A stretch of 63,305 nt of DNA, counting the filler, from Licmophora abbreviata (taxonomy: Eukaryota), in assembly GCA_900291995.1 (NCBI GenBank). It is 14 parts of 14 records of this genome, joined end to end, with 100 filler letters (N's around TTAATTAATTAA, not from the genome) between each part and the next. Parts side by side here need not be neighbours in the genome. Positions count along the whole stretch, not along the records: positions 14,049 to 18,585 come from OLMU01004140.1; 13 more parts are not named here. The stretch is one strand, 5' to 3'. Below the pieces are notes generated by a model, which saw only the letters and a list, made by a program, of their open reading frames with translations, was not told where the DNA came from and ran no database searches. Shown here piece by piece: positions 11,866 to 18,831 of the stretch. Position 1 is the first letter of the stretch; each line of letters starts with the position of its first letter. Position numbers and translations under genes: made by a program.

Positions 11866-14800
11866 CTATGATCGTTTACTCTGTTTAAGCATCTCAAACG
11901 CCATACCCCCACTTAGCTCAACACTTTTTTCGTCGGACTCCTCCACATCTTCCAGAGAAGCGCCCGCATCGTCCAGAGACGCTGTACCGTGAGGCTTTCG
12001 GTGCGACAGCTGCAGAATGCGCAAGGAGCGAGCAAGATCCATTTGACTACCGCCTTCCATTAATAGCGTGTAATCGTAGTCTTTGTTGGCCTTTCGCGGA
12101 GTGATTCGCTTCTTCTTTGGCGCAACCTTTCGATCGACAAGCAAGTGCGTTTCCATTTCGCCGATGCCCTTCACGTGTACCACCCCCCTTCGCTCTGTCG
12201 TGAAATCGTTCTTGATCAAATTGACGACACTGGGTGTTATCTGAATCTTGCCCGGGATTCCTGTGCTCTCCATCCTCGACGCTAGGTTGAAACGCAGAAA
12301 AAAATAGAGACGATGAGACATCATTTTCCCCATTCGATTCGTGAGCGCTTCACCTACTACTCACCGAGATTGACCGCGTCTCCCCACAGGTCATATAGGT
12401 ATCGCTTGGTACCAACGACACCGGCAACAACCTCGCCCGAGTTGATTCCGACACGCAGATTCAAGGTACGATCCGGGTGGCGGTCGTTAAAGTTGCGGAG
12501 TGCCTCGATCATGTCGAGCGCAAAATGACACACTGCAGAGCAGTTTGCAGATGCCACTGCATCCTCCTCCGCTTTGGATTCTGGAACGATTGTTGCCATG
12601 TAGCAGTCTCCAATCGTCTTGATCTTTGTGAGCGGATGATACTGCTCAACTAGGTCGTCAAACATACTAAACAGCTCATTTAACATGGATACGACCTCCT
12701 CGGGTTTCATGCTGTTCGACATGGCAGTGAAGCCGACGATATCAGCAAAGAGGATTGTCGCACCCGAGTGGCTCTCTGCAATGTGCGATGGATCGGATTT
12801 CAATTTGGCAGCAATGCGTTCTGGGAGCACATTGAACAACAGCACCTCGGCAGCGGCCTTTTCGATTTCTGCCTGCATGCGTCGCTTCTTGTCGGTCATA
12901 TCCTCTGCGTATATTGCAAAGAATACGGCATTGTCCGGGCCCTCCACTTCAACGGTGTGTAGCGAGACGGGAAAGGACTTGCCTTCCTTGGTGAGTCCTT
13001 CACCCTCCCTCGTCTCGGTCACAGGTACTCCGACCGAGAGAAACGCTTCCATTTCTGCTACGACAGCGTCACCAACCTTCTTGGAGAGCACTTGCTTGAC
13101 AGAACATCCTTTCAGATCGTTAGCTTCCCAGCCGAACTTGTTGACTGCGGCAATGTTGACTCGGACGATGCTACCACTCGAGTCGACGACAAACAACGCA
13201 TCTGGAGATGACTCGATGATTTTACTGGTAAATTGCTCTTTTCTTCGAATTTCAAGCTCATATTGCTTTTGCTTGGTCAAGTCACGGAGAAAGCCCGCGA
13301 ACTGTCGCTTGTCTCCATCTTGAACCTTAACCTCGCAGAGTGCAAGCTCCATGAGAAATTGTGTCCCGTCCTTTCTCATTGCCAAAAGCTCACGTTTCTG
13401 GCCCATGATGTGCGACACACCCGTCTTGAGAAAGCGCTTCAGGTACTCGTCGTGGTGCTGGGCGTGGCCTCCACCGCAAATGATACTAATGTTGCTCCCA
13501 AGAAGTTCGGCCTTGGTCCACCCAAGGTGGCCCTCGGCCGCGTCGTTCACCAGCTCGACAATCCCGTCTTCGTTGATCATCAGTAAGGGGTCTAGAGCTG
13601 TATCAATGATTCCTCGGATGAGATCCTCTCTTCGCTTGCGACCCGATAAGTCGTGCACAACACCACAGAACATCCTGTCCTCTCCTGGATTCGTCTTGAG
13701 CTCCAAAACAGCCAATTCAATCCAAAACTCAGTCCCATCCTTGCGCCGAGCCGGCAACTCTCGGTTCTTTCCAATGACGCGCTTTTCTCCCGTGGCGAGA
13801 TAGTGCTTCATGTAATTGTCGTGATGCTTGGCGTGGTTGCCACCACAAATCACACTAATGTTCTTTCCAACAAGTTCTTGTCGACTCCATCCAAATTTGT
13901 CGACTGCCGCTTGATTGACCATGAGTACCGTTCCATTTTCGTTCACATNNNNNNNNNNNNNNNNNNNNNNNNNNNNNNNNNNNNNNNNNNNNTTAATTAA
14001 TTAANNNNNNNNNNNNNNNNNNNNNNNNNNNNNNNNNNNNNNNNNNNNGTCGACTGCCGCTTGATTGACCATGAGTACCGTTCCATTTTCGTTCACATGA
14101 AACATGGGATCCAAGGACGCCTCCACCATTTCCGCCGCCAGACGTTCCTTTTGCTTGAGAGAGGACAAGTCTCGCACAAAGCCACAGAAGAGCCGTTCGT
14201 CTCCCAGAAACGTGTCACATTCGACCACTCCCAGCTCAATAGGAAACTCCGACCCATCCTTTCGTCTGGCAGGCAGTTCCCGCTTTCGTCCAATTACTCT
14301 CGTTTCTCCGGTCGCCAAGTACCGCTCCAAATACGCGTGGTGTTGCGGCCCATGATTGCCGCCGCAAATCATGCTAATGTTGTTGCCCAAAAACTCAGTT
14401 CGGCTCCAGCCAAATAGTTTCGTGGCAGCAGAATTGACCATTTGAATCGTCCCGTGCTCGTTAATTTGAAAGAGCGGGTCGAGGGAGGCGTCAAAGACGG
14501 CCGATAGTATACTTTCCCGCTGATGGGCGTCCGATGAGACCGTCAGAGTTTCGGTGTCGGTGGGAAGTGCATTGAGACTGCTTCGACGACGCAGGAACTG
14601 CGGCTGTCCTCCGGACGCGACACTTTTCACACTGTCCTGATGATCGCCATGACGAATCCACAAGAGAATCAAGTTGTCATCGTCAAAGAGTGTCAGCTGC
14701 AACGCTCCGGGAAACGACGTGCCATCCAGTTTTCTGCCAGTGATGGTCCACTCGTCCGGGAGCGAGGATGATGATGATTCATCGGATTGATGAATGTAGT

Positions 14801-15056
14801 TTAGCGTTTCCAGCCAGCTCAGACTATCCTTTTCTTCAGCCATGGCTGTCCCCAGTGTCCAAAAGGACAGGGTAGAGTCGACATTCGATCCAACCAAGGA
14901 TGAAGGCCTGTCTGCACCGCCGGAAGTTGACCCAAAGAGGTCATGCGCGGGCTGGTTTGCATACAGAATCTTGTGTTCCGAAGCGTCGACTAGCACTCCG
15001 GCGTCAAACGAATTCTTCAGAACTTTCGTCAGTAATGTCTTTGAGCTGCTCATCAT
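11866..15056 (-). CDS. Soluble multi-PAS class III adenylyl cyclase (5 PAS + cyclase, ~985 aa if the two contigs are merged)
   Basis: Cyclase motifs ATILFADIVGFT, KIKTIGDCYM, LRVGINSGEVVAGVVG, YDLWGDAVNL|ASRMES, with intron 12282..12364. PAS repeats with RxDGxxF. The linker splits the gene, and 13899..13948 is identical to 14049..14098. Confidence 0.92.
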
Positions 15057-15457
15057 CGCCGAGAGAAAGAAGCAACGCCAAAACGATTCGCTACAGCGAG
15101 ACAATCGACCATCAACGATACTGGTATAGCATGTCGCAAAGGACAGTCAGCCCTCCAGAGTTCTTCGGAAGTTTTGGAATGTTGTCTGTTTTTTGTCTCT
15201 ACGACGTCCTATCATAAATATGCAGTCGTGCTTCGTATAGTACAAGAGCTGCGCGATGTCACCTGCGCCGTGATCTTTCTGTGGCGTGTGTGTGTGTGAG
15301 GATGCCAATGGCGGTACCGTGTCATAGTCAACCATACAATTAGAGCCGAACTGGACTTGCGATTCAATGCCTCGTGATCATGTGTGTATTTTCATCGCCT
15401 GACGCTTGATTGGATCACCATTGATATTACAAGAACCGAAAACGCTCGTCAGCAATC

Positions 15458-15856
15458 ATGTCGTCGTCATCAGCCTCCACACAAGCTCATCATCCGGATG
15501 CCCAGAGTTCATCGTCGCCAGAAATACAAGCACTGCGGCAGTCCGCGGACCAAGCCGTTGAATTGATCAATCGTCTCGATGCAGACTACTCTGATCTCGA
15601 AGAACGAGAGCAGCAGCTACTGCAGGCCATGCGGTGTCTGGTCCAAGATCAGGCATGTCTCCAGAATGCCATACGCGAGACCACGGAATCTGGACCGGAG
15701 CGACGGGCACGACGTGTGCAAGAACGAGATGATGCTGTGATTGCAAGATTGGAATCGGCATTGCTTCAAGCAGCGAGTAGCAGTGAGGATGAGGAAGAGC
15801 AGGACGACACCGCGATGAGTACGACAAGCAATCGGGATCATCGTCAAGGCGCATGA
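15458..15856 (+). CDS. Small coiled-coil hypothetical protein (132 aa)
   Basis: ATG-started ORF with heptad-like helical composition and an acidic tail; a (GAT)n microsatellite follows the stop. Confidence 0.65.
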   Translation: MSSSSASTQAHHPDAQSSSSPEIQALRQSADQAVELINRLDADYSDLEEREQQLLQAMRCLVQDQACLQNAIRETTESGPERRARRVQERDDAVIARLESALLQAASSSEDEEEQDDTAMSTTSNRDHRQGA

Positions 15857-17157
15857 TGATGATGATGATGATGATGATGAGCAAGCCGCAAGACGGCACG
15901 AACGCTGGATTGACAACCACCCAGGAAGTAAGTGTGCAAGAGAGAAAGTTGTAGACTATTTATACTTTGGACAACTTTGGTTGGTTGTGTTTTGAAGGGC
16001 GGGAAAGCGCACCGACCGCAACTTCTCGTCCAGAGGTGCATGTCGAATCCATTTCATACGCAGTCCCATTTCTCATGTAGAAGCGCAGAACCAAAATGGA
16101 ACAATCGGAAGGATCATGTTTGGTGATGTCAATTAGTTGACCAACCGTCTCTCTAGTATCTAGTACCATTCCGTGCGGCAGCAACAACACATCTATCTGA
16201 GCATCTCTACTCTGTAACGCTAGTCGCCTATTGGCCCTTCTTTTGATCCAACGGTTTTCCCTCATTTGTTGAGATATCGGATACGCCAATCTTTACGATG
16301 GTCGTATTTTTTGTTACTTTCCTTCGCGATCGAGTTGCTTCTCCTCGGTTCCGATTTCCGGTCATTCCTCACCAGAATTCCCCCGCTAGCCTGGCTGGGA
16401 AGCTTCCCGTTCCAACTCGGCATCCAACGCTTCCAGTCGTGCATCTACGCGTCGAAACCTTCTCCGGAAGATTGTCTTGTTGCATGAAGGATGCCGCTGA
16501 CGATCAATGGAGACCCCGTGGTCTCCCGGGCCTGGATCCTGGGGAAGTTGAAAATATGATGCTTTCCGACGAGAATGTCAGTGTGGAAGAGTGCAAGTGT
16601 CAAAGGCATGTTGAAATGACTCAACACGTCATTTCCGAAGATCCTCGTAGAAACAATACCAATCTTGTTTCGCGTGAACCTCCAGTTAGGAGGTCGATGC
16701 ACTTCAGCATTTTGAATGAGCTGGAGTCTTGTTGGACGTTCTGGTTCAATACAAATTTCTGGAGTGAGTTCAAGGAAAAATCTCAACGGCAGGCAATAGT
16801 CCGATTTTATATATGCCCCGACGAGGCGCCATCCGCAACGAGGAATTTTATGATCATTGAGAATCGAAATGTGCCGTTGTTCCAGCTGCCATTCATTTCA
16901 AATACTTATGGATAATATCGCTTCTACCATTTCTGAGACGTTTACACGAATGATCAAACTACAGTTCTTAAAGTTTTAATCTTCAAGATTCATGAGCGGG
17001 CAGCGCAAGGTCCCACAACGGCTTGTCCAAATGTCACAAAATTCAACCCCGCTCTGGATCACACAGCACCGGCGACATTCAATACTCCGGCAGAACGAAC
17101 GTTCCCCTGTGATCTTGTGAAAGACTTTGGGTTTCACAATCAACACGAAGTAAGACC

Positions 17158-18003
17158 ATGAAGCTCTTTGTTTCCATCGGGGCCCTTGCGGTCCTTTGCA
17201 GCACCGTTTCGGCGCAGGACGTCTTGTCTTTCGTCCTGCGCGTTAAGGAAGGTGATGCCATCGACGATTTGTATTGTCCTCTCAACAAAAAAGATCTTGG
17301 AAGTTCAATGGAAGAGTACGTTTTTAATCGTATTGTCGATGGCGTCGAGGAATATGCCAAGGAGGTTGGCGTGCTGGAAAAAGACGTCACGTTGAAGGGC
17401 GGAGAGTTGATCGCAGACAACATTGAAGACGGCCATCGTGTTCTTTTCTCTTACCATCGCAATAATGGTGGCGGAAGCGGTGGTGCTGGAAGTGGGTCGA
17501 GTGGCGATGACGAAGATGACGGCGGCCGTAAGCTGTTTAGGTTCAACTGGAAGCCTCGCAAGTACGGTGGTGGCTCTGGCGGTTCAAACAATGGTGACGA
17601 CAACGATGGCGGCGGCCGTAAACTGTTCAGGTTCACGTGGAAGCCTCGCAACCGCGGTGGTGGCTCTGGTGGTTCAAACAATGGTGACGACAACGATGGC
17701 GGCGGCCGTAACCTGTTCAGGTTCACGTGGAAGCCTCGCAACCGCGGTGGTGGCTCTGGCGGTTCAAACAATGGTGACGACAACGATGGCGGCGGCCGTA
17801 ACCTGTTCAGGTTCACGTGGAAGCCTCGCAACCGCGGTGGTGGCTCTGGAGGTTCAAATAATGGTGACGACAACGATGGCGGCGGACGCATGCTCCAGGA
17901 CATTCAAGACTTTGAGAAGGAGGTCAGCAAGTCGATAACTGAGACGATCAAGAAGGAATGTAAGGGACCCGAGCTAACTGTTGAAGTTTTCATTGACCCT
18001 TAA
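17158..18003 (+). CDS. Secreted multi-peptide precursor with six RXL sites
   Basis: Signal peptide MKLFVSIGALAVLCSTVSA, then five 30-aa units delimited by RVL/RKL/RKL/RNL/RNL/RML. Confidence 0.9.
   Translation: MKLFVSIGALAVLCSTVSAQDVLSFVLRVKEGDAIDDLYCPLNKKDLGSSMEEYVFNRIVDGVEEYAKEVGVLEKDVTLKGGELIADNIEDGHRVLFSYHRNNGGGSGGAGSGSSGDDEDDGGRKLFRFNWKPRKYGGGSGGSNNGDDNDGGGRKLFRFTWKPRNRGGGSGGSNNGDDNDGGGRNLFRFTWKPRNRGGGSGGSNNGDDNDGGGRNLFRFTWKPRNRGGGSGGSNNGDDNDGGGRMLQDIQDFEKEVSKSITETIKKECKGPELTVEVFIDP
17437..17895 (+). repeat. In-frame 90-bp tandem repeat (1 diverged + 4 near-identical units)
   Basis: Units start at 17437, 17527, 17617, 17707 and 17797. The last four encode RxLFRF[NT]WKPRxxGGGSGGSNNGDDNDGGG. 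Confidence 0.97.
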
Positions 18004-18831
18004 ACGAAGGGTGTGAGAGGACGGATGGGCTCTACATCACGACTGACACGTGCATTGGTGCGTGAACGGAATTGCGTTGAAGGAATCGGTAGCTCAGATG
18101 GCGAAATGGACATTTCCTAGCCTAGGGTATTCTAAATAGCATTGTATGAATGAATGTTAAAGTTAGTTCTAACCTTGGCTGGTAGCTATAGTGTTGAAAG
18201 CCCAGACATCATCCGTTCGAGCCCTCGAAACGGAACAAGCGAATCTGCTTCGTTCTCGCTCATTCTTCACCGAATCTTGCTTCAGCCTGCCCCGCGACTT
18301 GACCCATCTTCTAGGTGTTATTGTTCCCGTTCCCAAAAGGTTAAGTTCGAACGAAAACGATCTCTTTCATCCCACTTTCTATCCTCTCATGGTAATTTCT
18401 CTTCACGTGGGACTTCAACTCCCCAACCTAAAAATTTCGAGAGCGAATCGGAAAAATTTCATGTCGCTCGCCGAAAATGACCCTTATGACGTCATACAAG
18501 AACTCAAATGGTATGCAAATGTCAAGGGGGATTCTCTGTACGAAGCCCCCCTAATCGTCTGTCCGGCGGCGATATTCATTCGATTNNNNNNNNNNNNNNN
18601 NNNNNNNNNNNNNNNNNNNNNNNNNNNNNTTAATTAATTAANNNNNNNNNNNNNNNNNNNNNNNNNNNNNNNNNNNNNNNNNNNNTCTACTACAGTAGAA
18701 GTACGGGTAGTAGTATCACGTATCATTCAAGTTGATCACAACTCCTTCTTGCTATGCCAGTAGCTCGAGATGACTCGTATCCACTGTTCACCAGCAGCCC
18801 GTAAATAGTAGCATTTCAGTCGGTCCCAATC

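Follow-up and report, generated by a model that had tools for sequence, protein, structure and literature searches.

Licmophora abbreviata encodes a predicted secreted precursor in which five 27-residue cassettes, each bounded by Arg-x-Leu (RxL) triplets, are nested between an N-terminal and a C-terminal flank with one cysteine each. The array appears to be the expansion of one such nested cassette, and the precursor is probably processed at its RxL sites. As the best single reading of the product we tentatively favour a signal or recognition peptide, with a wall or matrix role close behind. RxL polyproteins themselves are already known; what appears to be new is the peptide type, together with the evidence tracing the array back to one cassette set within a small domain.

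The gene lies on contig C4140 (OLMU01004140.1; positions 14049-18585 of the window, that is, of the whole 63,305-nucleotide stretch of DNA that was analysed, filler included), at contig coordinates 3110-3952. Its coding sequence (17158..18003, plus strand) is a single exon with no intron needed, begins at an ATG with an in-frame stop codon 16 codons upstream, and predicts a precursor of 281 amino acids, P0001, which a protein search of the assembly (29.2 Mb, 7734 contigs) returned as a single copy. The N-terminus is the sole hydrophobic segment (KD window-11 maximum 2.68) and was called heuristically, from hydropathy and a V-S-A end (Ala19), as a predicted signal peptide of residues 1-19 (17158..17214, plus strand). 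No transmembrane helix was found, the KD window-19 maximum after residue 20 being 0.56, and Pfam returned no family for P0001 or for its paralog P0002.

The neighbours of the gene look eukaryotic, with a PAS protein on the same contig and a PAS/guanylate cyclase and a WW-domain helicase on adjoining contigs. About 2 kb upstream of the precursor, at 12357-15056 on the minus strand, a PAS ORF and a PAS plus guanylate cyclase ORF flank an assembly gap and are probably one multi-PAS nucleotide cyclase gene. A 205-residue ORF directly upstream (16298-16915, plus strand) has no Pfam match and may be a non-coding promoter region open by chance. Silicon transporter genes in the assembly (11 matches above the cut-off, best E 2.5e-212) mark the genome as that of a diatom; three silicon transporter matches stand in tandem on contig C845 (1790-6079) with long open frames of 883 and 1334 amino acids, possibly a multi-domain SIT, and a triplet-domain transporter has its own section in a recent report (10.64898/2026.03.25.714164). 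Translations of contigs C2231 and C2298 and of two more stretches (L082, L177) look bacterial (guanylate kinase-like and Lrp/AsnC-like by eye), and the assembly probably contains some bacterial contigs.

P0001 contains RxL at residues 94, 124, 154, 184, 214 and 244 (RVL, RKL, RKL, RNL, RNL and RML), spaced exactly 30 residues apart, and nowhere else. Site 1 (RVL, 17437..17445), preceded by non-repeat acidic sequence, opens cassette 1 (17446..17526), a diverged 27-mer with an FSY head and a net charge of -4. Site 2 (RKL, 17527..17535) opens cassette 2 (17536..17616), a 27-mer with three residues unlike those of cassettes 3-5 (17626-17706, 17716-17796 and 17806-17886), which share the same amino acids with synonymous differences and are bordered by sites 3-6 (RKL 17617, RNL 17707, RNL 17797 and RML 17887, within 17617..17895; all features on the plus strand). 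Each cassette consists of an aromatic, beta-strand-like head, a Gly linker, a D-D-x-D tail and Gly-Gly, after which comes the closing R-x-L. Cassettes 2-5 carry four basic and three acidic residues each (pI 8.5-8.7, net +1), and their heads alternate strictly, with F, F and W on one face and R, T/N and K on the other, a pattern equally compatible with self-assembly, strand donation and receptor binding. The heads of cassettes 3-5 hold four basic and three aromatic residues in 10. Every cassette has two Ser and one or two Lys; none contains Cys or Pro-Pro-Asp. The 27-mers begin at Phe97, Phe127, Phe157, Phe187 and Phe217 and have calculated unmodified masses of 2516, 2817 and 2783 Da, in a full-length chain of about 28 kDa. 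The original prediction of a signal peptide, of six triplets 30 residues apart and of five 27-mers, three of them identical, agrees with the predicted protein, the first item on heuristic grounds. It also held that the diverged first unit keeps both length and bipolar layout; the 27 residues stand, but with one basic and five acidic residues (pI 4.05) the unit is not bipolar in charge.

At the DNA level, TRF delimits a 90-base unit in 4.1 copies with 95% matches (17515-17885). Thirteen bases vary among units 2-5, nine of them at third codon positions of the P0001 frame; two overlapping ORFs, 17451-17903 (minus strand) and 17465-17938 (plus strand), were therefore read as repeat shadows and rejected as genes. 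The Arg and Leu codons of the borders vary synonymously in these units, and the middle residue changes (K, N, N, M). In cassettes 3-5 all 27 residues are invariant though three codons differ synonymously, and the sole amino-acid change is at the x of the border. The copy number of five may be an under- or over-count, because the assembly is fragmented and no read-set contig spans the array.

How far the RxL register can be trusted depends on what chance would give. In 20 long ORFs of the window, RxL occurs at 55 of 9109 positions (0.6%), and on the same ORFs a random 30-residue unit holds one with p ~0.17, after which duplication copies the site. Because four of the units are recent tandem copies, the sites cannot be counted as six independent events. 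Judged on sequence, the informative evidence is the register of site 1, of site 6 and of the paralog's two sites, not the site count: site 1 is in register although the sequence upstream of it lies outside the repeat, and site 6 coincides exactly with the end of the array. Arg and Leu are invariant at all eight cassette borders of P0001 and the paralog, x being V, K, K, N, N, M, R and R. The context of the borders is also distinctive, with the proviso that tandem copies are non-independent: at least three acidic residues fall in the eight positions upstream of 8/8 border triplets versus 4/54 control RxL, and Phe opens six of six cassettes, an aromatic residue following RxL in 7/54 controls.

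The paralog supplies a second view of the cassette. A genome search that used the last cassette and C-terminal flank of P0001 as query gave a weak match to P0002 (genome-wide E 0.03), a 171-residue ORF on contig C5381, and the reverse search with P0002 returned the P0001 gene (E 0.02). P0002 is composed of a signal peptide, REL at residues 30-32, an acidic N-terminal flank, RRL at 94 and 99, a cassette, RRL at 131, and a C-terminal flank with a helix and a Cys. Its cassette of 29 residues starts with FSY, contains two Cys (Cys-x4-Cys, no Pro) and ends in D-D-S-D-Q-G-G. The expectation that homologs keep the triplet at unit borders was thus borne out by the sole homolog found, with RRL on both sides of its cassette. 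Cassette 1 is the closest to the P0002 cassette, 0/3000 shuffles reaching the score, and for cassette 3 the score was reached by 8/3000 (local) and 1/3000 (global). Similarity is marginal between the C-terminal flanks (81/3000 shuffles) and not significant between the N-terminal flanks (1096/3000). These comparisons show the cassette, not the flanks, as the apparently conserved part of the two proteins. Because the one-cassette state exists in P0002, the five-copy array is most simply a tandem duplication of the cassette; copies 3-5 would, again most simply, have been homogenised later.

We consider it likely, from the placement and conservation of the triplets, that P0001 undergoes RxL processing and that its peptides are released. 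A diatom RxL endoprotease, described as unknown in one account (PMC5525289) and with candidates proposed from co-expression in another (PMC5501833), would cut after each Leu in the secretory pathway. The R-x-L tail would then be trimmed off as in silaffin-1, whose mature peptides are described without their RRIL/RRNL tails (PMC4557024), and the product would be up to five peptides of 27-30 residues per chain. In frustulins, cingulins and silacidins the repeats terminate in RXL (PMC4557024), and P0001, a predicted secreted diatom protein with RXL at its module borders, fits this broad kind of precursor. A 2017 account called RXL processing hypothesised and unproven and gave RXL sites as known at that time only from biosilica-associated proteins (PMC5647440), and one study avoided the motif when tagging (PMC9650480).

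RxL alone does not point to silica, because an RRL-bounded insert also sits in a carbonic anhydrase domain of this genome. The exon in question, eukaryotic-type and located on contig C491 (L142:587-1216; Pfam E 1.8e-12), carries within the domain a strongly acidic insert of about 27 residues with RRL on both sides, possibly an excised loop of a secreted carbonic anhydrase. In Toxoplasma, an aspartyl protease reportedly cleaves a PEXEL-like motif, and that cleavage falls after Leu. C-terminal amidation, which the Gly ends of the cassettes might suggest, gained no support: the two copper type II monooxygenase genes found look DOMON/dopamine-beta-hydroxylase-like, and neither could be shown to encode an amidating enzyme. 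One of these genes (contig C4050, L185) has DOMON domains and a signal-like start; the other (contig C4194, L184) is cut at its 5' end and ends in Pro/Thr repeats.

Given processing, about half of our expectation falls on an extracellular signal or recognition peptide, and the evidence for this role is circumstantial. The aromatic/basic head would be the active part, the acidic tail would serve as protease context or spacer, and the repeat would raise the dose per transcript. P0001 has no silica-targeting motif. Mating-linked secreted genes of Cylindrotheca are young, taxon-specific orphans (10.1101/2024.04.15.589526), and the orphan status of P0001 fits such genes of diatom mate signalling. 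The structural model of P0002 falls, at low confidence, in the fold class predicted for MRP1 of Pseudo-nitzschia multistriata, a secreted protein that is positively selected and has been proposed to function in sexualisation (PMC6261938; PMC11749564), and whose predicted fold is S6-like/SEA-like (10.64898/2026.03.25.714164). MRP1 resembles our proteins in being secreted, in belonging to no recognisable family and perhaps in its predicted small S6/SEA-type alpha/beta fold (here that of a P0002 model with pLDDT 41); it differs by five helices in the predicted element order, the comparison being one of description, not of sequence (10.64898/2026.03.25.714164).

Among the sex-inducing pheromones of diatoms only one has been solved, and it is a modified heptapeptide (PMC12843257; PMC12352721). 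SIP+ of Seminavis robusta is a heptapeptide with a two-residue Cys loop (Cys-x-x-Cys-Pro-Pro-Asp core), two hydroxyprolines and a sulfated Asp (PMC12843257; PMC13369874). An extracellular signal of a diatom, it is built from standard amino acids with modifications, and it shares Asp and a Cys pair with the P0002 cassette; the cassettes of P0001 cannot give a SIP+-type peptide, because they contain neither Cys nor Pro-Pro-Asp. Pheromone biosynthesis in diatoms is presented as still open, and the SIP+ precursor as not described, in a 2025 review (PMC12352721). We noticed after the fact that two tandem sulfotransferase-like genes lie next to P0002, in tail-to-tail orientation, on contig C5381 (L186:1107-4597), neighbours that are of interest because SIP+ is sulfated; this subfamily has seven matches in the genome, often paired. 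Yeast MF-alpha1 offers a works-like analogy for the array, in that one secreted precursor carries a number of almost identical peptides, the repeat number controls the dose and repeat expansion raises peptide output (PMC5850478). There is no homology between the two, and MF-alpha1 has no flanking split domain. Its processing relies on Kex2 Lys-Arg sites and Glu-Ala spacers.

The same processing could instead release structural peptides, that is, self-assembling zwitterions of the silica wall, the organic casing or an adhesive matrix, in which the F-x-F-x-W heads would form beta-sheet stacks and the basic head of each chain would pair with the acidic tail of another. We regard this as possible, if somewhat doubtful. 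The architecture is equal to that of Sil1p and of the silacidin precursor (PMC4557024). Like P0001, Sil1p of Cylindrotheca fusiformis has a signal peptide, an acidic N-terminal part and tandem units each closed by RXL, of which the first and second are slightly diverged and the later ones near-identical (PMC4557024). Its units are Ser/Lys-rich with S/G-type KXXK, whereas those of P0001 are Gly/Asn/Asp-rich with an aromatic head, and the P0001 array is followed by a C-terminal flank with a Cys. The silacidin precursor of Thalassiosira pseudonana likewise has repeats, RXL at unit ends and an acidic stretch per unit (PMC4557024), but four of the five P0001 units are net +1 with two Ser, unlike a Ser/Asp/Glu phosphopeptide. 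A structural role would agree with the strict alternation of heads in cassettes 2-5, with their near-neutral balance (+4/-3) and with the high copy number, which suits bulk material.

Composition argues the other way. Set against the silaffin criteria (PMC5501833), P0001 has a heuristic signal peptide and tandem units closed by RXL, but no K[SG][SG]K, two KxxK in total, no pentalysine cluster (at most four Lys in 14 residues), 7.5% Ser and 6.8% Lys; each cassette has only two Ser, and one or two Lys for polyamine modification. In silacidin-like composition, cassettes 2-5 fall outside (pI 8.5-8.7, two Ser) and only cassette 1 is acidic. Cingulins alternate KXXK-rich with Trp/Tyr-rich regions (PMC4557024); P0001 has one Trp per cassette and no KXXK-rich region. 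Silicanin-1 and related SAPs share with our proteins a signal peptide followed by RXL, the REL of P0002 at residues 30-32 recalling their 'RXL domain', but they are single-pass membrane proteins (PMC5525289; PMC5647440), and P0001 lacks their C-terminal transmembrane segment (KD window-19 maximum 0.56). Composition and motif counts therefore uphold the earlier statement setting the peptides apart from silaffins and silacidins. Absent targeting motifs do not exclude a wall role, because 25 of 92 silica-associated proteins also lack known ones (10.1101/2021.09.18.460806). The RRL-bounded insert in carbonic anhydrase, a non-silica enzyme domain, further weakens the structural case, as does the failure to recognise wall genes among the neighbours checked (PAS/guanylate cyclase and helicase).

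The N-terminal flank (residues 20-93; 17215..17436, plus strand) is acidic (pI 4.3) with one Cys (C40, 17275-17277); on low-confidence AF2 and paralog models it probably contributes a strand, a helix and a strand as the first half of a split alpha/beta domain. The probable second half of that domain is the C-terminal flank (residues 247-281; 17896..18000, plus strand), with a long amphipathic helix, Cys268 (17959-17961) and a terminal strand. For full-length P0001, AF2 gave pLDDT 37, with low-confidence helices at 51-69 and 241-267 and strands at 78-85. The mature part of P0002, modelled from a three-row alignment, reached pLDDT 41 with the order beta-alpha-beta-beta-alpha-beta; in this model the Gly/acidic part of the cassette is a loop, RRL-FSYN forms strand 3, and the first RxL and the head lie in a core strand (residues 67-73). 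Fold searches with it retrieved ferredoxin-like folds, including ribosomal S6/S10-like chains, none of them significant (Foldseek best E 0.2); the best match had Z 6.8 and rmsd 3.1 over 97 residues, ferredoxin-like matches being common generally. SEA was absent from the fold matches listed for this pLDDT-41 model, an absence that does not exclude it. Complex prediction of the two flanks without alignments gave a score of 0.16 and a mark of 0.34, a result that speaks neither for nor against their association. The flanks may be halves of one small domain, and the chances seem evenly balanced that they fold together as a small ferredoxin/S6/SEA-like carrier, possibly linked through C40 and C268, with the cassettes looped out. 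Of the pro-domain of about 75 residues in the original prediction, an N-terminal part of 74 residues exists, but it looks like half of a small alpha/beta domain that includes the C-terminal 35 residues, left unmentioned there, and has the cassettes nested inside.

Such a fold admits a reading in which the domain itself is the functional unit, RxL and the aromatic head being one of its strands; any cleavage would be SEA-like with the pieces staying bound, and the extra cassettes would be spare or exchangeable strands and linkers. The position of RRL-FSYN as strand 3, the beta-strand pattern of the heads and the single Cys in each flank speak for it, and the head in the core strand of the P0002 model could mean that the head stays in the domain, which would count against a signal. 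Still, we think it unlikely: the model has a pLDDT of 41, one strand suffices per domain and yet cassettes 3-5 are identical with synonymous change only, and between the two paralogs the cassette is far better kept than the flanks, where a functional domain carrying a passive insert should show the reverse.

An antimicrobial or allelopathic precursor, in which the acidic tail neutralises the cationic aromatic head until release, is more improbable again. Animal defence-peptide precursors commonly combine acidic spacers with repeated copies, and the heads of cassettes 3-5 are basic and aromatic enough to invite the comparison. Against this, the cassette as a whole has a net charge of only +1 (-4 in cassette 1), head and tail have no evident further cut site between them, and no Pfam family matched. 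Among the three functions originally offered, this one seems the weakest on the net charge.

Searches for further relatives, restricted to lengths near the query, found no outside homologs of P0001 at E<=0.001 among 1533 candidates, of P0002 at E<=10 among 72, or for alignment A1 at E<=10 among 2981. Against 1.84 billion representatives, P0001 gave a single match, P0003 (E 4.5e-4, 27%), which we rejected as a homolog because it is a different repeat protein that shares only an F-x-F-x-W-K word and has neither RxL borders nor the flanks. P0003, a metagenomic protein of 520 residues known as a single member, consists of repeats of about 22 residues that have an aromatic core and spacers of acidic residues, a build that itself resembles a peptide precursor. 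Pattern scans of metagenomes confirmed 0/269 and 0/597 matches, the ESM Atlas held no usable match for P0001 or P0002, and a PDB sequence search (alignment A2) gave 33 matches at E<=10, the best at 0.033, mostly tags and linkers. Because these libraries are mainly prokaryotic and metagenomic, the absence of homologs leaves room for the family in other diatoms. In the literature, with subscription journals thinly covered, we found no paper on this peptide type or on a nested RxL cassette family.

Many hypothetical proteins of pennate diatoms have RRL-bounded inserts carrying a Cys pair and an Asp-rich tail. A DNA pattern for such inserts matched the L. abbreviata genome 21 times (control 11), with no member at any of the 21 loci. 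A second pattern had 539 matches and, among the 100 matches listed, no member at 30 loci and 14 stretches; a third (77 matches, control 27) found only P0001 and P0002 at 30 loci and 16 stretches, a fourth (46, control 98) only P0002 at 30 loci, and a fifth (43, control 22) no member at 30 loci. One profile match (L180, E 0.003) was rejected as the antisense of a 691-residue ORF, and no further member was seen on the P0002 contig or three other stretches. Contigs of four sequencing runs (X1, X2, X7 and X8) were compared with the gene, eight of the ten listed holding small shares (0.05-0.13). Those of X1 cover 17440-17647 with five differing letters and no gap, a contig of X7 matches 120 bases of the array exactly, and that of X2 has gaps at 17125 and 17129; the related contigs keep the P0001 frame within the ORF, and their gaps are confined to sequence upstream of the ATG. 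RNA evidence consists of a single 151-base contig of depth 2 on the N-terminal flank, from the polyA metatranscriptome X8, a weak hint that P0001 is expressed. Near-neutral, fast-evolving repeat expansion in an orphan gene, the register stemming from one chance motif and the chain staying uncut, could draw on the chance rate per unit, on four copies 95% alike, on the lack of outside homologs and on barely evidenced expression, but it is very improbable given RRL at both cassette borders of P0002, synonymous-only change within cassettes 3-5, borders in which x varies and R and L do not, and the frame kept in related contigs.

Diatom RxL polyproteins are known almost only from silica work, and P0001 would extend them with a small, clean candidate substrate for the protease, having six sites with a naturally varied middle residue and peptides of low synthesis cost. 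Wall or matrix products would add a third type of chemistry to those of silaffins and silacidins, marked by an aromatic head that self-assembles; signals, which we tentatively prefer, would bear on how diatoms make peptide pheromones (PMC12352721). Either way, P0002 suggests how RxL polyproteins can arise from a loop insert. More speculatively, and with a low likelihood in our estimate, diatom signals may share a general design in which a small SEA/S6-like secreted carrier has an RxL-bounded cassette looped out; MRP1 and the SIP+ precursor would be members and P0001 the MF-alpha-like multi-copy form. If this carrier-plus-cassette design is true, it would provide a first gene-level handle on the peptide pheromones or hormones of diatoms.
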